IMG/VR virus record: IMGVR_UViG_3300042893_001581
Span: 1 to 64,000 of that record
DNA length: 64,000 nucleotides
Reading direction: 5' to 3' (one strand)
DNA from: a virus
Shown here: in pieces, positions 16,885 to 31,929 of the stretch
How positions within the stretch are numbered: the stretch's first letter is position 1
Layout: each line of letters opens with the position of its first letter
Notes under the pieces: model-generated
What the model saw: the letters and a program-made list of their open reading frames with translations, nothing else
What the model was told of the DNA's origin: nothing
Database searches by the model: none
Translations under genes and position numbers: made by a program

Positions 16885-18561
16885 TTACACTACGTTAAGA
16901 TCAGATACTACTACCAAGCCATAGTATTCAGGACGTACCATAGTCATTGCGTAACGAGTCAAGATACCTTTTCTTGGAGTGAAGGTATTTGGATCGTACA
17001 CAAGTGGAGTCATGATCAATGGAACATATGGAGAGTATACAGCGCCACACTCTAAGAACTGATTGCCACGGAAACCGAGCAAGATAACGTTCTCAAGCAT
17101 GTAAGGGTTTTTGTAAACCTTATAACGACTGTTCAACTGACCTACTTTTTGTACACCAAAAGCATACTTCATTGTATCAGCTGCACCATCAGTATCAGCA
17201 GCAAATCCTGGGATAGACTCAAGAATTGTAGCTACAGTTGGAGAAACTACCATGAAGTTAGCACCACCACGCAAAGTACGCTGATGGATAATGTTAGACA
17301 CTTTCTGAAGTTTGATGCCCAAAGTTTGGAACCAACTCATTTGAGTGTAATAAACACCATCAGTATTGCTTGTGAAAGCAGTCTTTGCAGTGTTGATTTG
17401 ATTACCAACCTTAGCTGACCAATACTCAACAGTTGGCGCATTTTGAATTAACATATCCAATACTTCCAAATCAATCTCAAGAGAGATGTGCTCAGAAAGA
17501 AGGCCAGTCAATTCAGCTTCAGCGTCAAGAGAATGGTAAGCATTCAAGTCTTGTGCAAATTCTGGAGTCCATTGTGCTTTCAACTTACGAGTTTTAGCAC
17601 TGATTGTTTGAGACTTCATTTGTACGTTGATCTCAGGGATAACGATTGAAGTTGCAGACAAACTGTTTGGAACAGATGGGTTACCAGTTCTATCTTCAAA
17701 ATCACCACGACTGTTAAAGTCTGTTTGTTTATTATAGAAAACAGTAAAGTTTGCTGCACCAACTGCAATTGCACCACCTTTGTTAACTATAAAATTAACA
17801 AAAACTCCAGCAGCACTAGATGATAGAGCAGTAAACTGTTGCAAGTTTTCTGCATTACCGATAGCCGCAGTAGAAGAAGAAATAGTAAATGCTCTAACAC
17901 CCAATTGATTCAATGTAGAATCAATAGAAGATGTAGGGATTGTAAGCTTTGTTAAGCTTTTAGCTACAATTGATGCAGAATAATTACTGTCAAATTCAAC
18001 ATCAGCAAAAGTAGCAGATGCAGAAGCAAATCCTGATACAGATGAAGATAGTGAAGAACTAAATTGGTTCAAAGAATAACCAAAACGTCCAGCACCATAA
18101 AGAGCGCCTTCAGCAAGGTTACCAAAGTTTGCACTTGGAGTACCATAAATAGAATCACCAGCAGTGAAAGGATTCTTAGTGTTTCCGTATTGGAAATCAA
18201 GATAGAATACCAAACCTGCAGGAAGATTCATCGGCTGTACAGAAACGAATTCTTTAGCAGCGATTTGACCAAATACCTTACGTACCAATGGAAGAGCTAC
18301 ACCAGCCCACTGCTCACCAGTGCCAGGAGTAAAGGTTGCACCACCAGAGTTAAGGCCGCCGTTAGTGTTAGAAGATTCAACTACAAGCTGTTTAGCTTGG
18401 TTTTCGAGGATTACGGCCATGTTGTTGGCGTCGTAATCATGCATGCCCTCGAGAAGGCCTGACTTGCTCCACTTTTTAGCAAGACGCTGAGCAACACCAT
18501 GTTGATCAGAGAAAGCTGTACCAGCGGATTCAGTCAATAAAGATTGTACTAAATTTGCCAT
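16885..18561 (-). CDS. gp23: Major capsid protein (T4 gp23-like)
   Basis: LPLVRKVF, VSVQPMNLPAGLVFYL, AKTRKLKAQWTPEFAQDLNAYHSLDAEAEL, YSPYVPL, DPNTFTPRKGILTRY. Confidence 0.96.
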   Translation of the reverse strand: MANLVQSLLTESAGTAFSDQHGVAQRLAKKWSKSGLLEGMHDYDANNMAVILENQAKQLVVESSNTNGGLNSGGATFTPGTGEQWAGVALPLVRKVFGQIAAKEFVSVQPMNLPAGLVFYLDFQYGNTKNPFTAGDSIYGTPSANFGNLAEGALYGAGRFGYSLNQFSSSLSSSVSGFASASATFADVEFDSNYSASIVAKSLTKLTIPTSSIDSTLNQLGVRAFTISSSTAAIGNAENLQQFTALSSSAAGVFVNFIVNKGGAIAVGAANFTVFYNKQTDFNSRGDFEDRTGNPSVPNSLSATSIVIPEINVQMKSQTISAKTRKLKAQWTPEFAQDLNAYHSLDAEAELTGLLSEHISLEIDLEVLDMLIQNAPTVEYWSAKVGNQINTAKTAFTSNTDGVYYTQMSWFQTLGIKLQKVSNIIHQRTLRGGANFMVVSPTVATILESIPGFAADTDGAADTMKYAFGVQKVGQLNSRYKVYKNPYMLENVILLGFRGNQFLECGAVYSPYVPLIMTPLVYDPNTFTPRKGILTRYAMTMVRPEYYGLVVVSDLNVV

Positions 18562-18585: not shown

Positions 18586-19608
18586 TTATTTGATTCCAGC
18601 AAGTTTTTGCCATCTACTCATCATATTATCTTGCTCGATAATAGGTTGCTTAGGTGCCATACCAGCTGCTTGTGAAGCAAAACCAATTGATTCTTTAAGT
18701 TGCTTCTTAGATTCGAAAGACTCTTTCAAAGTTTCAAAAGTGTTCTTAACCTCAGTTACAGATGTAGCACGGTCAAGAGCATTAATTACTTTTACTTTTT
18801 GAGATTCAGACAAAGTCTTAGCTTTAAACAACTTGTTCATGTAAAGATACTTAGCATTAAGAAGATTAACCTCTTGTAGGCTATGACGAAGTTCTTCGAT
18901 AGTAGAGTTAGCTTCTTCAAGCTCTTCTTCTACTTTATCTTTCTTTTCGTCTTCCTCTTTGTCATGTTTTTTCTTCTCTTCAAGCTCTGGGTAATTCATA
19001 CCCTCTTCTTCAAGTTCAGCAAGAATTTCATCTAATGAAATTTCAGCTTCAGCTTCAGAATCAGCGTCTGCTTCGTCAGAAGGAATGTCCATGCCCATGT
19101 CTTGTGAGCCAGCCATTACAGATTGAAGAACTTGTTTAAGGTCACCAAGAGTGATGTCGATGATTTTAGTATCGTCACCAACTTCTTCTCCACCTTCAAC
19201 TTTTTCTTCCTCTTCTTCTTCAGCTTCTTCTTCTTCCTCTTCTTCTTCAGCTTCATTTAAATTTTCGTCTTTCATTTTGTCTTCATCAGCTTCTTCCATT
19301 TTATCGTGGTCAGCTCCGTCAACTTTAGAAAGCTCTTCGAGTTCAGCAAGAATTTCTTCTAGCTCAGAATCGTTAATGCTATAGTCTCCTTCCATTCGTG
19401 GTTGATCCATAGCGTCATTCATTTCTTCGATATTCTCTTCTGCTTCAGCTTGATAAGAATCATCTCCCATTTCTTCAGATAGCTTCAAACGAAGCATCTC
19501 TTGAATCTTAGGTTCGAAAGCTTCTTCAAGAGCGGCTTTGGCGTTAGCCATAGCAGATGCTCTTAGGGCTTTAGCATCAAGGATAGCGTCTTGATACAAT
19601 TTACTCAT
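18586..19608 (-). CDS. Prohead scaffolding/core protein (gp22-like)
   Basis: Highly acidic coiled-coil protein directly upstream of MCP; many (L/I)xE sites; ends RWQKLAGIK. Confidence 0.8.
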   Translation of the reverse strand: MSKLYQDAILDAKALRASAMANAKAALEEAFEPKIQEMLRLKLSEEMGDDSYQAEAEENIEEMNDAMDQPRMEGDYSINDSELEEILAELEELSKVDGADHDKMEEADEDKMKDENLNEAEEEEEEEEAEEEEEEKVEGGEEVGDDTKIIDITLGDLKQVLQSVMAGSQDMGMDIPSDEADADSEAEAEISLDEILAELEEEGMNYPELEEKKKHDKEEDEKKDKVEEELEEANSTIEELRHSLQEVNLLNAKYLYMNKLFKAKTLSESQKVKVINALDRATSVTEVKNTFETLKESFESKKQLKESIGFASQAAGMAPKQPIIEQDNMMSRWQKLAGIK

Positions 19609-19628
19609 AATTAATGATTGTGTCGGGA

Positions 19629-19693
19629 ATTGCTTATTAGAATGTAAAGCAATATAAGGATTTTTTTATAGTAGTGCCATATTAGATCATGGC
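19629..19693 (-). promoter_or_regulatory. Two hairpins in the 5' UTR of the scaffold-MCP transcript
   Basis: GCCAT-GATCTAAT-ATGGC and ATTGCTT-TACATTCTAAT-AAGCAAT; both loops end in TCTAAT. Confidence 0.5.
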
Positions 19694-19702
19694 GCATATG
19701 CA

Positions 19703-19710
19703 ATAAATAT
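19703..19710 (-). promoter_or_regulatory. Late promoter motif ATATTTAT (representative copy, upstream of scaffold/MCP)
   Basis: The same 8-mer lies on the coding strand upstream of genes at 2220, 12967, 16810, 19703, 22190, 24162, 28752, 32741, 37270, 40500 (minus) and 44920, 48714, 56999, 60809, 63242 (plus). Confidence 0.75.
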
Positions 19711-19749
19711 CTAAGTACGTAGTAAAATACATAAACTTAGAAATATTTT

Positions 19750-20232
19750 TTATTTACTACCTAAAAATACTAGCACTTCAACGTTTCCGTTATCGAGAGT
19801 TTTATAAAAAGTTATATTAGTCGGTATTGTTTGGCCTGAGACTTTTGATTTTGCTTTTTGAGTTGCTGCAAATTGCGCTGCTGATTGGGTTGCACCTGTT
19901 GCTTTGCCTTGTGCTATTTTTACTCCTTTACCTATCATGCCTTGTAGCATTTCTATAGATACATCAACAGATAATCCACCAGCTGCAGGTTTGTAACCTT
20001 GTTTTTCAATTTGTTTTGCAGCTTTAGAACTTGTAATATCAATATCATCGCTAGCTTGTTGAACTATTTGTTGAGGTTCTTGAGCTTTAGTTTGTTGAGG
20101 ACTTCCAAATAAAGATGCCACTGTCATTGCAGCACCAACACCAAGGTCTTTTAAACCTAATTCGTGTATTTCACTTTCTGATAAAAGTCCTGCTAACTTT
20201 TTTAATCTTAATATTTCTAATGAGTTATCCAT
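19750..20232 (-). CDS. Putative internal head protein with RLKKLAG leader
   Basis: N-terminus MDNSLEILRLKKLAGLLSE; lies between protease and scaffold. Confidence 0.55.
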   Translation of the reverse strand: MDNSLEILRLKKLAGLLSESEIHELGLKDLGVGAAMTVASLFGSPQQTKAQEPQQIVQQASDDIDITSSKAAKQIEKQGYKPAAGGLSVDVSIEMLQGMIGKGVKIAQGKATGATQSAAQFAATQKAKSKVSGQTIPTNITFYKTLDNGNVEVLVFLGSK

Positions 20233-20861
20233 TATTTAATACAGCAAACACCAGATTGAGAACAAATAATGTCTGATATTAACTGATGTATTTTATTATC
20301 TTTATGTTTAACTGTATCGTATTCTAATGATTCTCTAAGTCCACCCATTGGTTTCATGTATGCACCATAGGTTGATGGTGTAGATACAAAGTCCCAACAA
20401 ATAAGATCTAAATCATCTTCAACTTGAACAAGACCTTCACCTATTGGAGTAACAGAACCCATAGCTCTAGATGAAATACCAACAGTGATATTGTTTTTGA
20501 ATAATTCTCTTAATATATTTCCAGAAGGAGTAGGAAGTATTTCAACATCGCCATATAAATCTTTACCTTCCCAGAAAAGTCTTATTATATTATGACTAAC
20601 ATTCTTAAGGTTAATAATAGAAGATTCTGGGTGATCTAGTTCACCTAAAGCTCTATTCTCTGAAATTGGTCCAGCAATGTACTTCTGTACTTGCACAAAT
20701 AAAGTTTGATAAGGATATATTCTTTTATTTGCATTAGGTTTATCAGTAGCCTGAACAAGTCCAGACACTACCATATTACCATTAGCTAAACGACGAACTT
20801 CAGTCAAAGACTGCTGGATTGGTTGAAAAGCACTATATTCTATTAAGAGTTGTTTGTTCAT
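20232..20861 (-). CDS. gp21: Prohead core protease (T4 gp21-like)
   Basis: NANKRIYP, ALGELDHP, NVSH, GISSRAMGSV, WDFVSTPSTYGA. Confidence 0.93.
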   Translation of the reverse strand: MNKQLLIEYSAFQPIQQSLTEVRRLANGNMVVSGLVQATDKPNANKRIYPYQTLFVQVQKYIAGPISENRALGELDHPESSIINLKNVSHNIIRLFWEGKDLYGDVEILPTPSGNILRELFKNNITVGISSRAMGSVTPIGEGLVQVEDDLDLICWDFVSTPSTYGAYMKPMGGLRESLEYDTVKHKDNKIHQLISDIICSQSGVCCIK

Positions 20862-20862
20862 A

Positions 20863-22185
20863 TTATTCTGGATATGTAGAATATACTACTTTATTTTTTT
20901 CTAATGTTTGTATATCTTGTTTATTGTTAGAAGGCACATTAACAACTTGTCCTGTTGATCTAGCGGTTGTCATTTCTTTGTCAGAAATTTTTTCTTTCAA
21001 CTTCTTTACAGCCTCTTTAAGCTTACCCATCTTCTCTTTGTCATCTTTATTCTTATCTATATATTTTCTTAAAAGAGTCTGAATATCTTCTGGTTTATAA
21101 TTTAGTTCTTGCCCAATAGAAGGTCCCATTTGATCTCCTGTTTCTGGTGCGGCTCCTTTAAGGGAATCAAATTTTTTCCAAGCTGCATCTCTTTCTATTT
21201 TTTCTGTATCAGCTTGATTTTCTTGGGCTTTTTGAGTATGGTGATCTATAGTATTGATCTGATAGTCTTTCTGTGACCCATCTTCCATTTCAACGGTAAG
21301 AGTACCTCCAACTATTTCAATTACTTTACCTTTGCCATCAGCGGTGTGAACTTCTGAACCTACGTGATGTTTCCAGTGGCTATCTTCGTTAATTAAATCT
21401 TTTTTTTTAAGAGAATTGTAAAGATCTTTAAGTGCATCTTCTTTCATCATTTGAACTCCCTTAGGCTTTCCTTTTTTATTCTCTTTTGTAGATACTTTAG
21501 TATTTGCTTTATCAATATTTTGACCTTTCATCTTTTTCATTTGACGGTCCTTATTGACAAGATTATTCTTTTTAACTTCTTCAGTTCCAAGCTTAGCATC
21601 TGCTTTTGCTACATCTTTTGCATTAGCAAACATCTCTTCATCAAATACATGAGGATTCTTTTGAAGCATTAATGCAGCTTTGTTTAGAGCTTTAATATAT
21701 GAATCGTTAGTAAGTTCTTTTTCTTTATCTAGTAACATTTGTACTCCTTTTTTCAAGAAGTAAGGATTTACCCTATCAACTGCTGGGTCTGTAGGAACAT
21801 TATTATCAACTTCGTTTAAGGCTTCTTCTTCTTTAGAAAAAACATTTGGTCCGAAATTCTTTATCATATCAGCCTTTTGTTTTTCTATCATTTTTTCAAT
21901 ATAATCTGTAGGGGATGCATTATACATACCTTCTAAACTAGCTAAATAGTCTTTAGCAGCTTTTTTATCATAATCTTTACGATGAGTATCTAATTTCTGA
22001 TCTAATTTAGAATTATCTTGTAATTCACTAATAATACCCTTATTCTTAAGGATCTTTACAGCATCATCAAAAGATGTAAGGTTGGTTACCCAAGGAAGGT
22101 TTTTATCACGACGTACTTCGTAAATAAACTTATCACGACTTACTTCACCGGCTTTATGCTTACGATATAATTCAATTGTTCTCAT
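20863..22185 (-). CDS. Hypothetical Lys/Glu-rich head-associated protein
   Basis: 440-aa ORF with a late promoter motif and multiple ISE/LNE/INE/LKE sites. Confidence 0.6.
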   Translation of the reverse strand: MRTIELYRKHKAGEVSRDKFIYEVRRDKNLPWVTNLTSFDDAVKILKNKGIISELQDNSKLDQKLDTHRKDYDKKAAKDYLASLEGMYNASPTDYIEKMIEKQKADMIKNFGPNVFSKEEEALNEVDNNVPTDPAVDRVNPYFLKKGVQMLLDKEKELTNDSYIKALNKAALMLQKNPHVFDEEMFANAKDVAKADAKLGTEEVKKNNLVNKDRQMKKMKGQNIDKANTKVSTKENKKGKPKGVQMMKEDALKDLYNSLKKKDLINEDSHWKHHVGSEVHTADGKGKVIEIVGGTLTVEMEDGSQKDYQINTIDHHTQKAQENQADTEKIERDAAWKKFDSLKGAAPETGDQMGPSIGQELNYKPEDIQTLLRKYIDKNKDDKEKMGKLKEAVKKLKEKISDKEMTTARSTGQVVNVPSNNKQDIQTLEKNKVVYSTYPE

Positions 22186-22196
22186 GCTAATAAATA

Positions 22197-22328
22197 TTAG
22201 TGTCTTCCTTGTCCACGATAATTCTTTTCTGAACGGTCGTGTTTGTTAAATGATTTTTTTGCAACTCCTTTTTTTTTCTTACCAAATGTAACTTTAGCTG
22301 CGGTACCTGAACCTTTTGCTTTTGCCAT
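22197..22328 (-). CDS. Small basic protein (43 aa, not in ORF track)
   Basis: MAKAKGSGTAAKVTFGKKKKGVAKKSFNKHDRSEKNYRGQGRH; start overlaps the upstream stop (TAATG) and the ORF fills the gap. Confidence 0.75.
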   Translation of the reverse strand: MAKAKGSGTAAKVTFGKKKKGVAKKSFNKHDRSEKNYRGQGRH

Positions 22329-23287
22329 TACTTAAACTTTTTTATGTTTTGATTAAGTTCTGAAACCATTTCCTTGATTTTTGCAAGGGCTTTTTCTGTG
22401 TGTACTTTATATTTAAGACCACCTTCACCTTCAGATAATTCTGTTTTTAGGCGGTTTACATATTCAAATAATCTATTGATCTCTTGTACTTTCCTTCTTA
22501 CTTCACGAACTGCTTGGTGGAATTGATCTGATTTGCCTCTAGTCTTAGTTTCAGTTTTAAACTTTGAATAGCTTTCATCTAAACTACGCCTTTGAAAATA
22601 ATCGCTAGTACCTTTGTCGCTATAATCTTTTTCATAATAGTTAGGATCTTTACGATACTCACCATAATCACTTACAGGTTTATATTTGTCAGTAAACCAA
22701 TCATAGCTGTCTTCATTATCATCTTGCTCCTCGGGTTCATAATCTGGATTTACATCTTCACTTACAGTTTTATTTAAATTTGATTTAATATACTCACTAA
22801 AATCTTGACCATAAGTTAAAACTGGCAGTTGTTTTCCTAATTTTTTTTCTAGATCTTGTATTAATTTTAATTGCTTAATACGATTTTCATATGCTGAAAT
22901 TACAGAATAGTTTTTAGTTTCACGAGCTTTTGCTAATAATCCTTCTACTCTAGCTAATTCTTGAGAATTTGTTTTAATAGAATCACTTAACTCTTCAAAT
23001 AGTTTTTTATATATAAAACCGCCTTTTGATGGACGATTAGGTATAGATGGAGCATCTTCCCAATCCCACTTATTTTTCATGTATACTTTAGCTTTACCGG
23101 CTGCTAATTTAGGTTCAACATCTTTCTGCTCTTCTTCTTTTTTTACTTTCTTTTTATTTTTTGTTGTATACCAGTCTTGAGTAACAGGATTATTGACTGT
23201 TGATGGAGTCATTCCTGCACCAGTACTAGTCACAGACATTTCTTGACGTAGTTTTTGAGTAGCAAATTGATTGTTGAAATTAGCCAT
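22328..23287 (-). CDS. Hypothetical head-module protein
   Basis: 319-aa ORF coupled to neighbours; LRQE/LFEE/LDE sites; C-terminal coiled coil. Confidence 0.6.
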   Translation of the reverse strand: MANFNNQFATQKLRQEMSVTSTGAGMTPSTVNNPVTQDWYTTKNKKKVKKEEEQKDVEPKLAAGKAKVYMKNKWDWEDAPSIPNRPSKGGFIYKKLFEELSDSIKTNSQELARVEGLLAKARETKNYSVISAYENRIKQLKLIQDLEKKLGKQLPVLTYGQDFSEYIKSNLNKTVSEDVNPDYEPEEQDDNEDSYDWFTDKYKPVSDYGEYRKDPNYYEKDYSDKGTSDYFQRRSLDESYSKFKTETKTRGKSDQFHQAVREVRRKVQEINRLFEYVNRLKTELSEGEGGLKYKVHTEKALAKIKEMVSELNQNIKKFK

Positions 23288-24137
23288 TATTGATTGTTTT
23301 TAACTCATCAATCAAATCAAAATATTGTAAAATTCCTGTTATAGTATCGTCTTTAATAGACTGATTATCTTTAATAGGAGTTACAAATTTTAATACCTCT
23401 TCTAATTTGATTTTAACAACCTGGTCTTTTGAAGACTTTTTTAATTCAGTTAGTTCTTTTTGAATTTGATCTAACTGAGCATTTAAATATATTTTAAGAT
23501 TCTTTGTGTCAGAAATATTTGTGATGTATTCTTTTAACACCTCTTTCTGTTTTTCAGACATGTCTTGATACTTGTTATTGAACTTCTCAACCATTAACTT
23601 GTATGCCAGAAGCCTGATCTCTTTATCCTCTTTCATAAGATCGTCTACTATAGACTTTGGTACTTTTGAATCAGAAAGATCTTGCTTTGTTAAGTGCTCA
23701 AGAAGATTAATCTTATTTACAATAAGCTGTTTAGTGTCTGATAACTTTGAGTTTTGAGACTCAAGAATAGTATAAATTGAAGCATAAGATTTATAATGAT
23801 CTATCTTAGCCTTAAAGAAATTATCTATGTCGTAGTTATTCTTAATCTCTTTTATTAAGTTATATTTCAACTTGTTTATCTTCTCATAATCAAGCTTCTT
23901 GTATTGCTCAATAAGAGTAGAGACTAAGATTTCAGCTTTAGCTTCTGATAGTTTAGGGCTAGTTGAAAAGGCACTATAAAGGCCATATTCTTTACCTAAT
24001 TCTGTATTTGTAAAATACTTTTTAAGTATCTTAACAGACTTTGAATCTTGATTATTCAAGAGATCGGAAGTGGTCTGTCTAACTAGTAGTTCAAATAAAA
24101 TACCAGTATTGCGATATTTGGAATGTTTTATTGCCAT
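23280..24137 (-). CDS. Hypothetical head-module protein
   Basis: 285-aa helical ORF (KHSKYRNTGILFELLVRQ) directly downstream of the portal, with a late promoter motif. Confidence 0.65.
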   Translation of the reverse strand: MAIKHSKYRNTGILFELLVRQTTSDLLNNQDSKSVKILKKYFTNTELGKEYGLYSAFSTSPKLSEAKAEILVSTLIEQYKKLDYEKINKLKYNLIKEIKNNYDIDNFFKAKIDHYKSYASIYTILESQNSKLSDTKQLIVNKINLLEHLTKQDLSDSKVPKSIVDDLMKEDKEIRLLAYKLMVEKFNNKYQDMSEKQKEVLKEYITNISDTKNLKIYLNAQLDQIQKELTELKKSSKDQVVKIKLEEVLKFVTPIKDNQSIKDDTITGILQYFDLIDELKTINNG

Positions 24138-24177
24138 AGTTTTTTTACGAGTCCGCTAGTAATAAATATCTAAATAT

Positions 24178-26088
24178 TTAATCTAAACCATTAATTATAT
24201 TGTCTTCACTTAAAAGATCTGGTTGCTCAAACAAATTAACTTTTCTTTGGTGTTTCTTTGTCATTGCATTCAAAGTACTTTTATTCTTTAAATATTCGGC
24301 CATTGTTCCTTCCAATGCTAATGGGCTTCCTCCTTTATAGTTTGGCTTCATATCATCCTCTCCTCTTTCTGCATTTTTACTATAAGCAGCTTGACCAATT
24401 GGATCACGACCAAATCTAGAATTATCAGTACCAATGATAGAAGTTACAGCTTTTGGACGACCAGGCTTTTTCTCATCATAACCATAAGGTACATTCAACA
24501 TAGAATCTTCTTTGCCTCCATATAGACTAGCTATCTGGTGAGGCGTTCCGTATGCCTGTCCTGATTCTGCAGGATCATTGCCTTCTTCTTGGATCTGTGC
24601 GTATCTAAACTCTCTTTTCTTATCTTCAATAATCATATCTTCAAGTTCAGCATATTGATCTTCAGAGAAGTGGAATATCTTATCGTAAATAAAATCTCTA
24701 GGTAATAATGATCCTTCCATTGCTTGTTTAGCCAAATCAATCTTCTCTTTAAAGAGTGCTATCCTTTCTTGATCGTAAATAATAGATGGGTTAGTTAATG
24801 AAAGGCTAAAGTTAGCGGCAGACTCATTAGTATATCCATGTGCGTATAAGTGAACTAATGCAATCTTAGTTAATTCACTAATGATAATTCTTTGTAGTCT
24901 TTCAATAGTTCTAGCAAAACGAATATCTTCTGCAGCAAGTGTAGCTTTACCAGTTAAGTCTTTTTCATAACCCATGAAAGCTTTAGGTATTTTAAGGGCT
25001 GCAAATAACTTTTCACGGAAATAAGCTACGTCTTCAATACCATTATAATCAAGACCTTTTGCAGTATCTATTTTAGTAGATGTATCATTACCTCTTACAG
25101 GGATAAAGAAGTCTTCTAATAGGTTTTGCTGATTATATTTAAGATTATAATTACCTGTATTTGGATCAATCAAAGGAGTTTTCTTCATCTTTTGAATCAT
25201 CTTCTGCATGTAATTATCTACTTCACCTGGAGGTATAGCTCCTACATTTACATAGAAAATACGTCTTTCAGGTGCTCTTACAATACGATGAATCAACATC
25301 GCATCTTCAATCAACACATACTGTTTAAACAACTTACGACCTGGTTCTAAATAAGATCTACCATAAGGAAGATAGTTAACATCTCCAGTTAATCTGAAGT
25401 GTGCCATTTCAAAGTTATCAAACCAAATACCTGTATCATTGTTTTTTTGTGAACTATATCCTGTAGATGAAGCCAAAGTTGCATTTGGATCATACTTAAA
25501 TCTTACTTCTTGTGGGTTTTCTGGATTATATCCTTCTTCACGGATAATATTATACGCTGAAAAAGGAATTACATTATAAACACCATAATTTTCTGCAATT
25601 TCTAATTTGAGGTAGAAGTCACCGTATTTAGCCATGTTGCGAACCCAAGACCAAAGATTAAATTCAATATTAAGTACAGAATAAAATAAATTGTAGAGGA
25701 GTTTCTGAATGTTTTCATCAGAAGATCTAATTTGTAATACTTCACCTTGTTCATTTTTAAGTGTACATTCGTCTGCTACGATATCTAATGCTGAACAACA
25801 AATAGCATCTGTATCCATCGCGTCATAGTCTGCATATATTTGAACCCTTGCTGATTGGTAGTTCTGTGCTAAGTTAAGGTTTACACCATAAGCTGTTGAT
25901 GTAGTATATACCTTATTAAATCTATCAATTAAAGAGTTGGTTTGAATAACACCAGATCTTTGTATAGTATCTGTGTCAATTACTTTAAGCATATCTCCAC
26001 CCTCATTACGAATGATAACATCTGTAGAAAACAGACGTCTTAAGGTAGAGAATAAATTGTTTTGTTTTTGCGGTTGTTGTTCTGCCAT
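24178..26088 (-). CDS. gp20: Portal protein (T4 gp20-like)
   Basis: ALDIVADE, LIEDAMLIHRIVRAPERRIFYVNVG, LEDFFIPVRG, YFREKLFAALKIP, EDIRFARTIERLQ. Confidence 0.95.
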   Translation of the reverse strand: MAEQQPQKQNNLFSTLRRLFSTDVIIRNEGGDMLKVIDTDTIQRSGVIQTNSLIDRFNKVYTTSTAYGVNLNLAQNYQSARVQIYADYDAMDTDAICCSALDIVADECTLKNEQGEVLQIRSSDENIQKLLYNLFYSVLNIEFNLWSWVRNMAKYGDFYLKLEIAENYGVYNVIPFSAYNIIREEGYNPENPQEVRFKYDPNATLASSTGYSSQKNNDTGIWFDNFEMAHFRLTGDVNYLPYGRSYLEPGRKLFKQYVLIEDAMLIHRIVRAPERRIFYVNVGAIPPGEVDNYMQKMIQKMKKTPLIDPNTGNYNLKYNQQNLLEDFFIPVRGNDTSTKIDTAKGLDYNGIEDVAYFREKLFAALKIPKAFMGYEKDLTGKATLAAEDIRFARTIERLQRIIISELTKIALVHLYAHGYTNESAANFSLSLTNPSIIYDQERIALFKEKIDLAKQAMEGSLLPRDFIYDKIFHFSEDQYAELEDMIIEDKKREFRYAQIQEEGNDPAESGQAYGTPHQIASLYGGKEDSMLNVPYGYDEKKPGRPKAVTSIIGTDNSRFGRDPIGQAAYSKNAERGEDDMKPNYKGGSPLALEGTMAEYLKNKSTLNAMTKKHQRKVNLFEQPDLLSEDNIINGLD

Positions 26089-26092
26089 ATTA

Positions 26093-27688
26093 TTAAATTA
26101 ACCAAGTTAAATCTTGTGTTTCGCCACCCATAGGAGTATTAATATTCATAGCCCAAGGGTTTTGATTATATTGATTATTAGCATTATAACTAATACTATC
26201 ATCTTGAGTTCTAGTAAAACTATTTAATGCAGCATAAGTTAAATTTTCTGCTGTCTTTCTATATCTAAGGCTTGTTTCTCTTAAATACATTGCGATAGCA
26301 AAAGACATAACTAAGTCATCATTATAACTTTGCATTGCTTGTGCTTTACCATTTTTCCAAATAAAGACTCTTAACTCTTCTAAAAGTCTTATCGACTTTA
26401 TGTTTGCTAATTTAGTCTCTATAAAATCTCTCATCTTTTCTATAACTAAAGGCCTAGTTTTTTCTGTTGTACTAAAGCCAGGAACTAAACCAGTCTGAGT
26501 ATTAAATCTATCTACATACTTGGTAAAGTCCATGTTTTGATCTTGCTTATAACTATAATGTACATTGTTATAACCTCTTTCTAATACTGTTTGAATTACA
26601 TCCCAACCTATATTAGCATTCTCAATTACAACTAAGGCATTATTATATTCAGATGCAACACTTAATATTATATTAGCGTAATCTCTAGTATCTATTTGCG
26701 ACTTATACTCTGCTACTTGAGTTACAGATTCTATATCTATAACGTGAAAAGAAGAGTAATCTTTACCATCACCACGTGCAACGTCAGCAACCAGGGCATA
26801 ATATTTCATTGGATCGGGATATTCCCATAACCACAATGCTTTATCTAATCCACGCCTTTCTATTGGTTCTGAGATCATATTCTGCTCATACCAATTTAGT
26901 ATATCTGGTTCTATAACTGTATTACCTGATGTGGCAAAGTCGCAATCACACTCTTGAGCAGCATTACGCTTACCTAATATTGTATCTTGCTCATCTCTCC
27001 AATCTTGATTACGTTCAGGGTGAACTGTCCAAGGAAGAGAGATCGGTAAAAACCTATTTTGTTGTTCTTGAGCAGATGTATAAGTTTTGTGAAACCAGTT
27101 ACCTACGCCATTAGGAGTAGATAATGCTATACAACCACCACCTGTTGCCAATGTTTGTTGAGCAGCTGTAAAGATAGTTTCAATATTATCAATAAACGCA
27201 GCCTCATCTATAACTAGTAGCGATACAGCTTCAGAACGACCAGCATCACCAGCAGCAGATACTGCTTTTACTTGAGAACCATTTACTAATTTTAGACTAA
27301 GTCTATTATCTTCAGCCGTTCCTATCTTAAGCCAACTTGGTAAGTTTTGATAAGCAAATCTTACTTTAGTTACCATGTTCTTGGCAGTATCTTGCTTAGT
27401 AGCAATAACAAGAACGTTTTTATCTTTATTAAAGAGCATTAACCATAATGAGTAAGCAGATACTAAGGTAGATATACCTAACTGCCTTGACTTATTTATG
27501 ATTGAATAATCATGTTTCTGAAACAGTTTAAGAACCTTTTCTTGAAACGGATAAAGATTAAAGAATTGCCTACCTCTTTGTGGGTGCTGGATCATATAGT
27601 ACTTCTTCATGAAGTATACAGGATCTGTCGCGCACTTGACAAACTCTTCTCTAATCTTTTCTTTTATCGATATCTGGTTGTCAGACAT
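26093..27688 (-). CDS. terL: Terminase large subunit (T4 gp17-like)
   Basis: KSRQLGIST Walker A, LLVIDEAAF Walker B, STPNG, ADVARGDGKDYS and DDLVMS nuclease motifs. Confidence 0.96.
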   Translation of the reverse strand: MSDNQISIKEKIREEFVKCATDPVYFMKKYYMIQHPQRGRQFFNLYPFQEKVLKLFQKHDYSIINKSRQLGISTLVSAYSLWLMLFNKDKNVLVIATKQDTAKNMVTKVRFAYQNLPSWLKIGTAEDNRLSLKLVNGSQVKAVSAAGDAGRSEAVSLLVIDEAAFIDNIETIFTAAQQTLATGGGCIALSTPNGVGNWFHKTYTSAQEQQNRFLPISLPWTVHPERNQDWRDEQDTILGKRNAAQECDCDFATSGNTVIEPDILNWYEQNMISEPIERRGLDKALWLWEYPDPMKYYALVADVARGDGKDYSSFHVIDIESVTQVAEYKSQIDTRDYANIILSVASEYNNALVVIENANIGWDVIQTVLERGYNNVHYSYKQDQNMDFTKYVDRFNTQTGLVPGFSTTEKTRPLVIEKMRDFIETKLANIKSIRLLEELRVFIWKNGKAQAMQSYNDDLVMSFAIAMYLRETSLRYRKTAENLTYAALNSFTRTQDDSISYNANNQYNQNPWAMNINTPMGGETQDLTWLI

Positions 27689-28377
27689 TATTTGATTATT
27701 AATAAACCTAAGATCACAGCGCCTAAGACTACTTTTTGGAATCTACCAAATTTAAGTTTGCGATCAGCTTTTTTTACTTCTGTTTTCAAACCATCAACTT
27801 GTATTTTATAGTTGTCAATTTGGCTTGATTTGTCTTTATCTATTTGAATATAGTTAGCTTCTTTGTCTCTTAACTTAACAATAACCTCTTCACGATTCTT
27901 AAGAGACTGATCTAAAGTAACTATAACGCTGTCTTGTGCTACTACTAATTTCTCATTTGTTTCTCCTTCTTGAAGATCAACAACAACCGCTTTACTTACT
28001 TCTAAAGGAAGTTGAGTTGTATCTTCAGATACTAAAATGTATTCGTTAGGATACTTAGCTACAAAAAAACTATCTACTTGAGTAGGAGTATATTTTAAAG
28101 CATTTTTAGCGTCTTTAAGATCACCTTTCAAATCTAAGACTTTTTCATTTAACTTAACCACTTTAACTACCAAGTATTCATTATCTTGTTCTAATATACT
28201 AATAGCTCCTTCTAAATGAATGTTTTCTATTTGTATAGAGTCAATACTATGTTCAAGTGAATCAATCTTTTGTTCAAAAGGTTTTGTATCAAATTTAGGG
28301 GCTTTGTAAATGAATACATACCAAACTGCTAATAAAGCTAAAAGGCATATCACTACAATACTAATTGTCTTCTTCAT
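27688..28377 (-). CDS. Membrane-anchored coiled-coil protein (possibly spanin-like)
   Basis: Hydrophobic N- and C-terminal segments flanking a long coiled coil. Confidence 0.45.
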   Translation of the reverse strand: MKKTISIVVICLLALLAVWYVFIYKAPKFDTKPFEQKIDSLEHSIDSIQIENIHLEGAISILEQDNEYLVVKVVKLNEKVLDLKGDLKDAKNALKYTPTQVDSFFVAKYPNEYILVSEDTTQLPLEVSKAVVVDLQEGETNEKLVVAQDSVIVTLDQSLKNREEVIVKLRDKEANYIQIDKDKSSQIDNYKIQVDGLKTEVKKADRKLKFGRFQKVVLGAVILGLLIIK

Positions 28378-28735
28378 CTGAATCTAATTTAGGGTTTTCT
28401 ATTCTTTTAATTTTTGCTTGTAGTCTTTGTATATCGTATGGAATTTGTCCTACAGCCTCTTTATATGCGGCCATATCTGTTATTTTTAATTCACCATTAG
28501 GACCTCTTTTTATTTTACCATCATCGTCTTTATCTGAATACTTATATATAGCCTTTTTTATTTGGCTTTTAAGATCTTCTAGTTCTTTTTTATCTTTATC
28601 TAGATTCCTAAAGTCTTTTTCAGATTGTTTGAGATCATCTTTTGAAGGTTCTACCTCCATATCTTCCTCTTCTCTGATCTTAGAGATTATGGTAAGATTG
28701 TTTTCAACTAAATACTTTCTTAAGTTAAATGACAT
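28361..28735 (-). CDS. Putative internal head protein (leader MSFNLRKYLVE)
   Basis: Late promoter motif at 28752-28759; leader ends LVE. Confidence 0.55.
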   Translation of the reverse strand: MSFNLRKYLVENNLTIISKIREEEDMEVEPSKDDLKQSEKDFRNLDKDKKELEDLKSQIKKAIYKYSDKDDDGKIKRGPNGELKITDMAAYKEAVGQIPYDIQRLQAKIKRIENPKLDSDEEDN

Positions 28736-28762
28736 GGTTGCACATTTACTTATAAATATTTA

Positions 28763-29008
28763 TCAATCAACAAAATCTTCTTTGGTAAGTACTTTCCTTA
28801 AAGGCCTAGATAATTCTAGCCATCTATCATAATCGTACTTGACTCCAAACAAATAGTATTCGTCTTGCTTATTATGTCCTTTAGAGTAAAGGATAGCAGG
28901 GCCTGTGGCACAGTGTGGTTTTGTAGTCCCTTTTTCGTCTTCGTAGATGTGGATTGTTGTTCCTTCTATAGTGTTTATTGTTCTATAGATTGTATCTTTT
29001 TTTGCCAT
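28763..29008 (-). CDS. Hypothetical protein with its own early-type promoter
   Basis: 81 aa, H..GPA...EYYLFG motif; upstream TTTGTTGTATATTAG. Confidence 0.6.
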   Translation of the reverse strand: MAKKDTIYRTINTIEGTTIHIYEDEKGTTKPHCATGPAILYSKGHNKQDEYYLFGVKYDYDRWLELSRPLRKVLTKEDFVD

Positions 29009-29022
29009 GTTATTAATTTATG

Positions 29023-29057
29023 GCTAATATACAACAAATAATTGAAATAAAAAAATT
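29023..29057 (-). promoter_or_regulatory. Putative early/host-polymerase promoter
   Basis: Minus strand AAATTTTTTTATTTCAATTATTTGTTGTATATTAG is nearly identical to plus strand 42277-42311. Confidence 0.6.
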
Positions 29058-29071
29058 TATTTTAGAATAAA

Positions 29072-30616
29072 TTAAGAAAAATCTACAAGATCCTCCCCTT
29101 CAACATCTACATCTACATTTTCAGGATCTCCTATAAAAAAATTAAGTAAAGATGATAATGAAGATTTTAATTTATTCCATGCACTAGAAAAGAAATTTTT
29201 AATGCTACTAGAATCTATTTCATTAATATCTTCTGGATTATACTGGAGTCCTAAAACTGTAGCATATCCGTACTCTCCGGTTTTTTCTCCTTTACTTTTT
29301 ATAGATCCTGTTTTAAATCTAACATCTACTTTTATTTGTCCTGCTACTTTTTTTGCGTAAGAATCGTTTTTTATTTTAACAAGTTTAGCATTTTCATAAT
29401 TTTTATCTACAGATAAAATATATTCTGCGGTTGCAGGGCTATCTGCTCCAAATTTTTTTTCTCCAGACATTGCTTCAATTACAAATGCTTTTGTAAAAGT
29501 AGGATTATTTTCAAATAAACTTTCTAAAGCAGCCATTGCTTTTTTATTTGCTGCATTTGCTGTATTTAAAGCTTTATCTTCTCCTGTTTTTAGTGATGTT
29601 CTTATATTTCCTTGGGTTCTTCCTCCTTTAGCAAATTTATTTATTTGTTTTAAAATATTTTGAACTTCTTCTGTTTGTATTAACTCTGGGGTTTTTTCTA
29701 ATGCTGCATAAAATGTGGCCTTAGCTTCTTCTTTTACTCCACTCATTAATTGAGACGGTCCTGCTTTTACTGATATTCTCGCACCTCCTATTATTACATC
29801 AGATTTTGATGTCTTATTTTTTGCTTTATAAAAACTCCAAAACTCTGTTAATGGCTCACTAAGTTTACCTGTAGATATAGCATATTCTCCACCGGTTAAA
29901 TTTGTTGCAATAAGAGCTTTTTTTGCTTTATTTATTAAATCTGGGTATTTACTATTTATCTGGTTAACTTCTGAATCACTTACTGCTCCTTTTGGTATTT
30001 TTCTATTATTTATTTTATGCCATGCTATTACTAAAGCCGTTTCAAAAAGAACAGATTTTTTTTGCTCACCTTCTGCTTCCAATACATAATTAGTTAAAAT
30101 ACTCTCTAATATCCTAGACTCTGTCAACTCTTCTCCTCCTGCTTCTGGTGCTGATGTTTCTGCTGGTGGAGTTGGTCCTGCTTCTTCTGAAGGTCCTTCT
30201 GAATCTCTAGTCGCTTGTTCTGCTCCATCAGGTCCTTTAGTCTTTAAAGGATTACCAAACCTAAGAAGCCTTGATATTGCAATCATGCATCTTTCTTTCT
30301 CACCAATAGACATTAAATAGTATTTTCTTCCTTCTACAGTTGCTTCATAAGCTTTACCCATGAACTGTAAGAATAAGAATTGACCATTATGTAGAACAAC
30401 TTTAAATGTTGTTGGCTTAGGAGCAACTACATATATACCAGTTATATATTCTTCAAATGAAGGAGTCATAAGATACTCAAGAGTGTTCTTAAGTCCTGCA
30501 TACTTCTTCAATATGAACTGCATAGGATCATCCTCAAACGTAGAAGTTTCAGGCTCCATCCTATCTAACTCTTGTAAGAGTATAGTCTTTAATATATCTT
30601 GGTTACTCACTGGCAT
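29072..30616 (-). CDS. Two-domain leader-bearing protein; C-terminal domain possibly PD-(D/E)xK-like
   Basis: Leader ...ILKTILLQE; linker ELTESRILESILTNYVLEAE; TSKSDVIIGGARISVK motif. Confidence 0.45.
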   Translation of the reverse strand: MPVSNQDILKTILLQELDRMEPETSTFEDDPMQFILKKYAGLKNTLEYLMTPSFEEYITGIYVVAPKPTTFKVVLHNGQFLFLQFMGKAYEATVEGRKYYLMSIGEKERCMIAISRLLRFGNPLKTKGPDGAEQATRDSEGPSEEAGPTPPAETSAPEAGGEELTESRILESILTNYVLEAEGEQKKSVLFETALVIAWHKINNRKIPKGAVSDSEVNQINSKYPDLINKAKKALIATNLTGGEYAISTGKLSEPLTEFWSFYKAKNKTSKSDVIIGGARISVKAGPSQLMSGVKEEAKATFYAALEKTPELIQTEEVQNILKQINKFAKGGRTQGNIRTSLKTGEDKALNTANAANKKAMAALESLFENNPTFTKAFVIEAMSGEKKFGADSPATAEYILSVDKNYENAKLVKIKNDSYAKKVAGQIKVDVRFKTGSIKSKGEKTGEYGYATVLGLQYNPEDINEIDSSSIKNFFSSAWNKLKSSLSSLLNFFIGDPENVDVDVEGEDLVDFS

Positions 30617-30619
30617 TAT

Positions 30620-31255
30620 TTATTTTGCTTTTTTACGCTTGATAACACTTTCCATCATAGATTTAAGAGCCATGTCTAAATCTTCTGCATCACCTGCAGG
30701 TACTTCTTGTGTACCATCTGGAAGTTCATCCATATCATGCTCACCGTTATGATATTCATGATAATTCTTTGAAGCCTGATTAATAAAGTTTTCTGCATTA
30801 GTAATATGATCTTGTATCCAAGCTGGAATATCTTTTTCATCTTGGCCTAACATATTCATCAATTGACTTGCTGAGCTTATAATAGACTTAAGACTATTTT
30901 GAGCCATTGATACTTCATGATCTTGACCTTCAGATTCCTTCATGTACTTTGATTTTCTCATAAAATCTCTTTGTGCGTCAGCTTTGGATTCAAACCCATC
31001 ATTTGATTTTTGACTTTTTCCTGATTTAGGATTCCATGTCCAATAGTATTTATCACCTTCTTTTTCAATCTTTAAAGTTCCTCCACCACTATCATCATCT
31101 TCTTCTTCGTTTTTAGCACGAAGTGCTGCAAAGTCTGCAGCAGTAATTTTATCTTTAGGTTCGGCAGCTCCTGCTATTCTCTCTTGATTTCCAGGAAGAT
31201 CTTTTTCATTTAACTCTTTCATTAAAAGAGCTTTAAAGAATGAAATGTTAGTCAT
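30620..31255 (-). CDS. Putative internal head protein (start revised to MTNISFFKALLMKE)
   Basis: ATG at 31255 directly follows the upstream stop; modules delimited by LNE/MKE. Confidence 0.6.
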   Translation of the reverse strand: MTNISFFKALLMKELNEKDLPGNQERIAGAAEPKDKITAADFAALRAKNEEEDDDSGGGTLKIEKEGDKYYWTWNPKSGKSQKSNDGFESKADAQRDFMRKSKYMKESEGQDHEVSMAQNSLKSIISSASQLMNMLGQDEKDIPAWIQDHITNAENFINQASKNYHEYHNGEHDMDELPDGTQEVPAGDAEDLDMALKSMMESVIKRKKAK

Positions 31256-31256
31256 T

Positions 31257-31544
31257 TTATTTTTTCTTTTTAGATTTACTTGCTTTTTTCCATAAACTTT
31301 TATCTGCTTTTCTTGCTCCACCTTTACCTGTTACAAATGAATTTACTCTGCCCATTGCCCATTGGTGTTGACCAACTCCAGGACGGTGTCCTGTTTTCCA
31401 AGCTGCCAAACCTTTAGCATAAACACTTTTAAGTATTGATTTAGATATACCAGTAGACTTTGCTTTGTTTGCTAGTGCTTTTTCTATTTCAGCGTCATAC
31501 TCAAGAATGAGTAATTGTTTTAATATATCTAATTTATTGATCAT
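31257..31544 (-). CDS. Basic putative internal head protein (start revised to MINKLDILKQLLILE)
   Basis: Leader followed by a basic domain GLAAWKTGHRPG...WAMGRVNSF. Confidence 0.6.
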   Translation of the reverse strand: MINKLDILKQLLILEYDAEIEKALANKAKSTGISKSILKSVYAKGLAAWKTGHRPGVGQHQWAMGRVNSFVTGKGGARKADKSLWKKASKSKKKK

Positions 31545-31554
31545 TTCTTTTTTT

Positions 31555-31929
31555 TTATCTAATTTCCTTAACACTTTTTTTAGCGTCTTCTAATGAATTA
31601 AATGCTTGTGAAGGATTTCCTGGATTTGCAGTTTGTGTAAAAGTATACACGTAAAATTTACCATCTTTATTTGTAATGGCATAATTTTTTGCAGATCCAA
31701 TTGCTCTAGACACAATATCAACTAAAGGAGACGAACTATCAATATTAAATTTTTTAATAAATTCTTCTTTATTATTAATGTCTGTCCATTTTCCTTCAAA
31801 TGAGGATTTAACTGGTGCTTGATCTCCTCCGGATAAAAATTGGTTTATATCAAATTCATCTAATTGAGATTCCTTAATTATACCAGCTAATTGCTGCATT
31901 CTTTTTACTTCATTTAATTGTTTTTTCAT
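31555..31929 (-). CDS. Putative internal head protein with RMQQLAG leader
   Basis: MKKQLNEVKRMQQLAGIIKESQLDE. Confidence 0.6.
   Translation of the reverse strand: MKKQLNEVKRMQQLAGIIKESQLDEFDINQFLSGGDQAPVKSSFEGKWTDINNKEEFIKKFNIDSSSPLVDIVSRAIGSAKNYAITNKDGKFYVYTFTQTANPGNPSQAFNSLEDAKKSVKEIR

Follow-up and report, generated by a model that had tools for sequence, protein, structure and literature searches.

The window analysed here is a 64,000-nucleotide stretch of viral DNA (positions 1 to 64,000 of the IMG/VR record IMGVR_UViG_3300042893_001581), and the element under study is a nine-residue peptide, RWQKLAGIK, that closes the predicted scaffold protein of this virus and recurs close to the N-terminus of two proteins of no known family. 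We read the N-terminal copies as cleavable prohead-targeting tags that work by scaffold mimicry, a variant of the capsid targeting sequence (CTS) principle of phage T4, and we put the probability of this reading at roughly 0.65. A preliminary description of the window had proposed an addressing code of this kind, in which cargo imitates the scaffold's end. Comparative evidence partly supports the proposal, since the motif is terminal, is selected at the protein level, is carried by many unrelated proteins, has a protease-type site at a fixed spacing and occurs together with a T4-type head module; the docking and release that it implied are kept here as conditional steps. The three copies and the genes that carry them are as follows.

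18586..19608, minus strand: predicted scaffold, a gp22 analogue, acidic, 340 amino acid residues (aa), assigned from its gp22 position and C-terminal homology.
18589..18615, minus strand: RWQKLAGIK, the nine-residue motif at the scaffold C-terminus, from sequence and alignment A2.
19750..20232, minus strand: tagged protein of 160 aa, without a known family; its gene separates that of the protease from that of the scaffold.
20176..20208, minus strand: tag RLKKLAGLLSE, N-terminal on the 160-aa protein, with an LxE site (LSE) at its end; E value 6e-6 with a tag hidden Markov model (HMM).
31555..31929, minus strand: tagged protein of 124 aa, without a known family, encoded some 4 kb upstream of the terminase gene.
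31870..31902, minus strand: tag RMQQLAGIIKE, N-terminal on the 124-aa protein, with LNE before it and IKE at its end; tag HMM E value 1.7e-11.

All three copies lie where the preliminary description had placed them. The scaffold open reading frame (ORF; 18586-19608, minus strand) closes with ...MMSRWQKLAGIK (longer stretch ...PIIEQDNMMSRWQKLAGIK) and a TAA stop codon, 24 nt before the start of the major capsid protein (MCP) gene. The 160-aa ORF, which starts at 20232 (MDNSLEILRLKKLAGLLSESE; its opening is also given as MDNSLEILRLKKLAGLLSESEIHE), carries RLKKLAGLL, and the 124-aa ORF, which starts at 31929 (MKKQLNEVKRMQQLAGIIKESQ), carries RMQQLAGII, in both cases 9-10 residues past the start Met. 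Because the ATG of the former overlaps the stop codon of the protease gene (TAATG) and that of the latter the stop codon of its own upstream gene (ATGA), both start codons are credible and the motif is truly near the N-terminus. As had been claimed, the two tagged proteins are unrelated apart from the tag: blastp aligned residues 6-27 of one with 7-28 of the other (E = 1e-4), and the mature parts gave a best E of 1.6. The best local match of each to the scaffold was the scaffold's last 8-15 residues. The further claim that (L/I)xE sites flank every copy was borne out for IIE in the scaffold, for LNE and IKE in the 124-aa protein and, in the 160-aa protein, for LSE and IHE downstream of the motif, but the upstream site of that protein is a non-canonical SLE. 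Beyond the tag and LSE/IHE, the body of the 160-aa protein (19750-20160) runs through a Lys into a stretch of moderate hydrophobicity, GVGAAMTVASLFG, and a segment rich in Gln.

A six-frame scan of the 64 kb, limited to ORFs of 50 codons or more, gave four instances of LAG[ILVM], among them the scaffold, 160-aa and 124-aa sites. The longer pattern [RK]xx[KQ]LAG[ILVM] was observed three times, always terminally, against an expectation from composition of 0.02 anywhere and 0.0018 in terminal zones, and none of 300 residue shuffles matched it. A search with the tag HMM returned only the three known sites, the next best match having an E value of 1.3; this tag census of the source genome covers the 64 kb window. 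Chance similarity as the origin of the shared motif is ruled out by the three terminal matches against 0.0018 expected. The invariant Leu, Ala and Gly positions use all six Leu, four Ala and four Gly codons, and the three window copies differ in their codons. Because synonymous codons vary freely at invariant positions, selection acts on the peptide, and the tag is conserved at the protein level. A DNA-level cassette, that is, a mobile regulatory or recombination element, is conceivable in that shared leaders might allow genes to be shuffled; the free synonymous variation excludes a DNA repeat or cassette, and to either origin, cassette or chance, we attach practically no weight.

The spread of the motif was surveyed with two degenerate DNA-pattern scans of IMG/VR, for M-Q-[QK]-L-A-G-I-[IM] and for K-L-A-G-I-I-T-E, each of which matched at least 119 contigs. 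From among the matches listed, 223 loci were fetched, and the survey counts given below, including those on conservation, spacing and clustering, refer to listed matches. The loci contain at least 272 in-frame occurrences. Ninety-eight of the 272 lie no more than six residues from a C-terminus, 168 lie 5-22 residues past a Met, and six are internal or unclear; in about 10 of the 168 the frame is open for more than 80 residues upstream, and the tag may be internal there. The C-terminal class is mostly scaffold, with a homologue of the window scaffold in at least 86 loci and a gp23-type capsid gene directly downstream in at least 88, and the gp23-bearing loci often also contain protease, portal and terminase genes in T4 order. 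Thirty of 115 loci with an N-terminal tag carry, within about 9 kb, a homologue of the window terminase, portal or other head genes. In relatives, the terminase gene is often closely preceded by tagged genes, and in the window the gene for the 124-aa protein likewise lies 4 kb upstream of it. One match to the loose pattern, a GroEL N-terminus (KKVLAGINKLADAV, locus L092), was set aside as a false positive.

Aligned on LAG, the N-terminal tags have the consensus M-K-K-Q-I-L-(S/N)-E-E-F-x-R-M-Q-K-L-A-G-I-I-T-E (also MKKQILSEEFRRMQKLAGIITE), an amphipathic pattern with a stripe of F, M, L and I, and LAG stands 9-19 residues from the Met. Every copy (100%) has the L, A and G, and 99% have the Q at position −2, a core that the search itself demanded; R at −4 reaches 77%, the remainder being mostly K, H or Y, I at +3 and +4 about 90%, and E at +6 92%. 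In T4, (L/I)xE is the specificity of the prohead protease gp21 (PMC9026906). Among unique N-terminal tags, the E of a [LIV]xE site falls exactly six residues past the L of LAG in 28 of 34, and such a site occurs within eight residues downstream in 32 of 34. For 67 of 89 copies in the C-terminal class, a distance of 11 residues separates the L from the E of the nearest [LIV]xE upstream. The background density of these sites is 0.054 per residue. Because the motif has an (I/L)xE site on its inner side, at a constant distance, it would always end up on a small terminal fragment that a gp21-like cleavage would detach. The fixed distance in both classes would also suit a leader that is a mere pro-sequence, keeping the protein inactive or marking it for the protease with no role in addressing, in which case the likeness to the scaffold would come from a shared protease recognition element. 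T4-type cleavage, however, needs little beyond (L/I)xE, which a nine-residue, near-invariant motif far exceeds. The motif would moreover be on the discarded side of the cut in both classes, as expected of a handle, and the protease acts inside proheads, so its substrates must arrive there first; we consider a pure pro-sequence highly improbable.

The C-terminal 100 aa of the window scaffold match the scaffold-position genes of Flavobacterium phage vB_FspM_immuto (hereafter immuto), Microcystis phage Mel-JY01 and the 484-kb metagenomic phage LR756508. Alignment A2 of the scaffold ends shows R, Q, L, A, G, I and an upstream E to be invariant, together with an IxE site (PIIE) 11 residues ahead of the L of LAG. 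The gene directly upstream of the capsid gene ends with RWQKLAGIIK in immuto, RMKKLAGIVK in Mel-JY01 and RIKRLAGL in Rhodothermus phage RM378, and variant ends occur in huge metagenomic phages, namely RMQKLADIS in LR756508 (G to D; L004, about 20390) and LKTLAGRKAK in the 595-kb LR756511 (L257, about 2960). In an AlphaFold2 model based on 25 sequences, the scaffold has a helix at the N-terminus, an acidic and disordered middle, a confidently modelled helical domain (residues 207-299), a disordered linker (300-326) and a terminal helix (327-336, NMMSRWQKLA) followed by a GIK tail, the terminal block being of moderate confidence (predicted local distance difference test 59-73).

This modelled end recalls the scaffold of phage 80alpha, whose last 16 residues form an 11-residue amphipathic helix and a 5-residue hook ending in RIIK, which together bind the capsid N-arm (PMC5644958; PDB 6B0X, 6B23). 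The window scaffold is likewise predicted to have a 10-residue helix, a Gly and a tail ending in GIK (GIIK in immuto) after a disordered linker. A profile of the scaffold C-terminus found no chain in the PDB at E values up to 10, and only the terminal IIK is like the RIIK of 80alpha. CpmB of the satellite SaPI1 has the same helix-and-hook and binds the same capsid site (PMC5644958). As with 80alpha and CpmB, one element is common to the scaffold and to second proteins, here many of them, which by analogy would enter the procapsid. CpmB, by contrast, is a homologous alternative scaffold from a satellite, whereas the window element is mostly N-terminal, would be cleavable and is found on unrelated putative cargo. 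The 80alpha scaffold and SaPI1 CpmB are a closer precedent than P22, which the preliminary description had invoked and which is a loose comparison. The receptor might lie in the core and not be the capsid protein: the terminal helices of the scaffold could bundle, or bind another core protein, and prohead loading would then proceed with cargo acting as pseudo-scaffold ends. Reviews of T4 give its CTS an affinity for core proteins with the mechanism unresolved (PMC9026906, PMC9958956), the tag is an amphipathic helix of a kind able to self-associate, and a homotypic bundle that tolerates mixtures would explain why cargo tags ignore the variants of their own scaffold. Yet the near-invariance of the polar R and Q and of the A-G pair suggests a specific pocket and not a generic coiled coil, and where structures have been solved it is the very C-terminus of the scaffold that touches the capsid protein (80alpha, PMC5644958). 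We hold a core receptor to be unlikely, though it is the alternative that we take most seriously.

Several other features of scaffolds were noted. Small ORFs of LR756508 open with ...GRLQELAGIEQ and ...SRFQELAGVLSE. The classical T4-like scaffolds examined (T4-type gp22, S-SM2, Melnitz-2 and Milchi) are without the LAG motif. They end in VSVYAKVASRF (T4-type gp22), MSAYLRTLGSTLQN (cyanophage S-SM2), MSAYMSAISKNVKRGKV (Melnitz-2) and IQSYLAAAKRPSQRLV (Pseudomonas phage Milchi), and share a terminal motif S-x-Y-(L/M/A) (L132 2424-3233; L254 1275-2351; L255 1240-2418; L256 1498-2301). A conserved terminal peptide thus seems to be general to gp22-like scaffolds and lineage-specific in its sequence. 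The T4-type core protein gp68 (L132 1330-1755) ends with ...KALKRRKALGLS, a basic stretch followed by A-L-G-L that is loosely like RIKRLAGL of RM378 and may be a coincidence. At the other end of the scaffold, the N-terminus reads M.N.DLLKEAIAE-AK in the clade (L009-L119) and MSKLYQDAILD in the window (19570-19608); T4 gp22 is alike with MLKEQLIAE-AQK (L132 2424-2460), and these N-termini also resemble MIKLxDLLxE, the class-1 leader that forms the window's other leader class, and the T4 CTS MKTYQEFIAE. The immuto scaffold gene, immuto35A_203 (L001 19095-20336), is labelled "DNA polymerase phi-like protein" in GenBank, almost certainly an annotation error that arose from the acidic middle of low complexity.

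The proteins that carry the tag are diverse. A first IMG/VR set of 37 N-tagged proteins, mostly acidic, fell into 33 blastp clusters, and a larger set of 127 complete unique N-tagged proteins, with a median length of 158 aa, fell into 75. A short N-terminal propeptide is shared by bodies that are mostly unrelated, as in a T4-type CTS system. Pfam gave no match above its curated cut-off for the window tagged proteins or for the larger tagged proteins tried; PHROGs gave nothing above threshold for the same proteins, apart from weak partial matches for one protein below it; and the ESM Atlas yielded no usable lead for the two tagged window proteins. The 160-aa protein has no homologue in any fetched locus. 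Its gene lies inside the head module, between those of the protease and the scaffold, a place that would suit an assembly modulator, and CpmB does have the scaffold's C-terminal capsid-binding motif and competes with the 80alpha scaffold (PMC5644958). Tagged proteins might, like CpmB, compete with the scaffold to tune occupancy, head size or timing. The tag is spread, however, over at least 75 unrelated families, several per genome and in variable regions outside the head module, which fits fast-evolving payloads better, and a protease site at a fixed spacing implies that the body is released from the tag; a modulator role is therefore improbable in our judgement.

The element is not confined to N-termini. 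Outside the scaffold, the motif peptide closes proteins of 77 (L016), 222 (L017 and L019) and 285 aa (L071), each time after an [IM]NE or IEE site, and some of these proteins have N-termini resembling the window's other leader class.

L016, 10379-10609: non-scaffold carrier of the C-terminal motif.
L017, 10419-11084: non-scaffold carrier of the C-terminal motif.
L019: non-scaffold carrier of the C-terminal motif.
L071, 9121-9975: non-scaffold carrier of the C-terminal motif.

The motif is internal, between two (L/I)xE sites, in larger ORFs of L205 and L218, and in one genome (L265, G006) it stands directly behind a class-1 leader in a tandem arrangement, MIKLTDILNEVRRFQQLAGLTE. These placements support the view that the LAG element is a portable module that may be N-terminal, C-terminal or internal.

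Among relatives with the scaffold motif, tagged cargo has a narrower distribution. In immuto the scaffold ends with RWQKLAGIIK and two genes are N-tagged, immuto35A_187 and immuto35A_42 (the ORF at 25470-25865 of MW353176.1), and the complete IMG/VR genomes G002 and G004 have three N-tagged genes each. No tagged cargo was found in RM378 or Mel-JY01, where the motif is only on the scaffold; both genomes were scanned whole by regular expression because the first-pass filter of the tag-HMM whole-record search had missed the RM378 scaffold motif. For a complete 166-kb IMG/VR genome, a tag-HMM search of limited sensitivity found only the scaffold copy. Because RM378, Mel-JY01 and the 166-kb genome have the scaffold motif without detected tagged cargo, the distribution suggests that cargo copies the scaffold and not the reverse, and it fits a scaffold motif that is ancestral with tags that arose later, restricted to one sub-lineage including the window and immuto. 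The preliminary description expected the cargo motif to follow the scaffold terminus across genomes. The core R-h-x-x-L-A-G-h is indeed shared, but lineage-specific scaffold variants are not copied by a phage's own cargo: in G002 a scaffold-length ORF ends with RMKKLAGL and the cargo has RMQKLAGI(I/V)TE, in G004 the corresponding end is RFQKLAGITKY and the cargo has R/K-M-Q-(Q/K)-LAG(L/I)(I/L)TE, and the scaffold motifs of the window and immuto have W against M or L in their cargo tags. Only three fetched loci contained both a scaffold end and an N-terminal tag, and the covariation test is weak because the searches demanded the shared core motif; its outcome does not refute mimicry, and positive covariation was not seen.

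The minus-strand genes at about 14-28 kb of the window form a T4-type head and packaging module, in which the scaffold and the 160-aa gene listed above are accompanied by the following.

26093..27688, minus strand: terminase large subunit, Pfam and PHROGs assignment; context gene.
24178..26088, minus strand: portal protein, gp20 type, Pfam PF07230, E value 1.5e-71; context gene.
Between the portal and protease genes, minus strand: three ORFs of no known family, placed by gene order.
20232..20861, minus strand: prohead core serine protease, T4 gp21 type (Peptidase S77), PF03420, E value 3.3e-22, above the curated cut-off; PHROG 207.
16885..18561, minus strand: MCP, gp23 type, 558 aa, PF07068 (Gp23), E value 3.3e-76; PHROG 138.

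The head set of gp20, S77 protease, gp22-like scaffold and gp23 is complete, with PF03420, PF07068 and PF07230 above their cut-offs and PHROGs in agreement, and the gene order is that of T4, including the position of the scaffold gene between the S77 protease and MCP genes. We presume that the S77 protease removes the tags. The MCP is 55% identical to that of immuto, 50% to that of Mel-JY01, 49% to that of LR756508 and 35% to that of RM378, and about 26-34% to the MCPs of classical T4-like phages. Because of these identities to cultured relatives and classical T4-likes, the window is assigned by sequence to an uncultured member of the deep-branching "far-T4" myovirus group. The N-terminal propeptide of the MCP (window 18380-18561) is strongly conserved and contains LxE sites, with an invariant LLxE near residue 10 as well as KW..GLLEG and ILENQAK in alignment A3; it resembles the T4 gp23 propeptide (KWKPLLEG, IFENQEK), yet the T4 scaffold is without the LAG motif.

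We infer the following course of events. R-(M/W/L)-(Q/K)-(K/Q)-L-A-G-(I/L)-(I/L) would be the docking end of the gp22-like scaffold in "far-T4" myoviruses, consisting of a short amphipathic helix, a Gly and a tail of 2-4 residues on a flexible linker. In one sub-lineage, represented by the window and immuto, numerous small proteins that are unrelated to one another and for the most part acidic would have acquired this peptide, as a rule 9-15 residues past the start Met and more rarely at the C-terminus or between domains. While the prohead is being assembled, the tag would bind where the scaffold end binds, most likely on the gp23-type MCP (its inner face or N-arm) or, alternatively, on another core component, and the cargo would become part of the core. 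The S77 protease would then cut at (I/L)xE, at a distance from the L of LAG of six residues downstream in cargo and 11 upstream in the scaffold; mature cargo would be set free within the head and probably delivered along with the DNA, and the tag peptide would be lost like the scaffold fragments.

Several points weigh against the reading of the tag as a cleavable address that mimics the scaffold. The (L/I)xE specificity of the window protease is assumed from T4 gp21, and two of the 34 unique N-terminal tags have no such site nearby downstream. The survey counts overstate the uniformity of the motif because the DNA patterns demanded its core. Because the chain of a tagged protein continues past the "hook", a free C-terminus can be no part of recognition in cargo, and because cargo tags ignore the variants of their own scaffold, scaffold end and cargo tag need not bind identically. 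Finally, no virion proteomics of immuto was found in papers that mention this phage.

In phage T4, the CTS is MKTYQEFIAE on IPII and IPIII, with related leaders on IPI and Alt, and is removed by gp21 (Mullaney & Black 1996, reviewed in PMC9026906, PMC9958956). N-terminal propeptides of 10-19 residues that end at gp21 sites send unrelated and foreign proteins into the T4 core (PMC9026906; PMC9958956), with a receptor that is unknown and a recruitment mechanism called mysterious in a current review (PMC9958956). Like the T4 CTS, the window tag is a short N-terminal propeptide on unrelated proteins with an (L/I)xE end, in a phage with the same head gene set, and its cargo varies between relatives. 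Unlike the CTS, it is longer (about 20 residues would be removed), copies the scaffold C-terminus, also occurs C-terminally or internally and is carried by far more families. Only the terminal xE is shared between the tag consensus and MKTYQEFIAE, which makes the tag a separate class by sequence, and the end of T4 gp22 (...VYAKVASRF) differs from the LAG-type scaffold end. The preliminary description had also drawn a parallel with encapsulins. It is apt in that a short conserved terminal peptide sits on diverse cargo that would be destined for the interior of an HK97-fold shell, but the resemblance is one of function alone: this phage has genes for both a scaffold and an S77 protease, and its tag is bounded by a protease-type site, whereas encapsulins have no scaffold, maturation protease or DNA, and their cargo peptide is kept and mimics nothing. 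Engineered P22 virus-like particles load cargo fused to the coat-binding C-terminal domain of the scaffold (PMC9962691); there, too, cargo carries the capsid-binding end of the scaffold, and the window phage would seem to be a natural version. The P22 particles differ in being man-made, in using a helix-turn-helix domain and not a nine-residue motif, and in lacking proteolytic release. In the literature searched, no paper was found that describes the motif, or the principle for T4-type phages, and the motif letters returned only unrelated papers. What appears to be new is a tag that copies the scaffold; cleavable capsid-targeting leaders (T4) and a shared capsid-binding scaffold end (SaPI1) were already known.

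A broader rule for T4-type capsid targeting can be imagined, in which the LAG tag copies the scaffold C-terminus and MIKLxDLLxE and the T4 CTS copy the scaffold N-terminal propeptide. Cargo would then enter the core as a pseudo-scaffold subunit, and either end, or both in tandem as in MIKLTDILNEVRRFQQLAGLTE, would suffice. We regard this rule as speculative and doubtful; if true, such copying of both ends would explain how T4 cores recruit internal proteins.

For T4-type phages in general, the LAG tag would be a natural clue to how the core is loaded, the address label being the scaffold's own terminal docking peptide. The tag singles out more than 100 functionally uncharacterised proteins that are probably payloads delivered by the capsid, and thereby candidates for factors of anti-defence or takeover. 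As a nine-residue, protease-removable and position-independent tag, it may also offer a means of loading proteins into phage heads, a natural counterpart of the P22 scaffold fusions. The question of the receptor becomes testable, because the scaffold end and the cargo should share one receptor, and experiments are feasible because the cultured relative immuto has the whole system.

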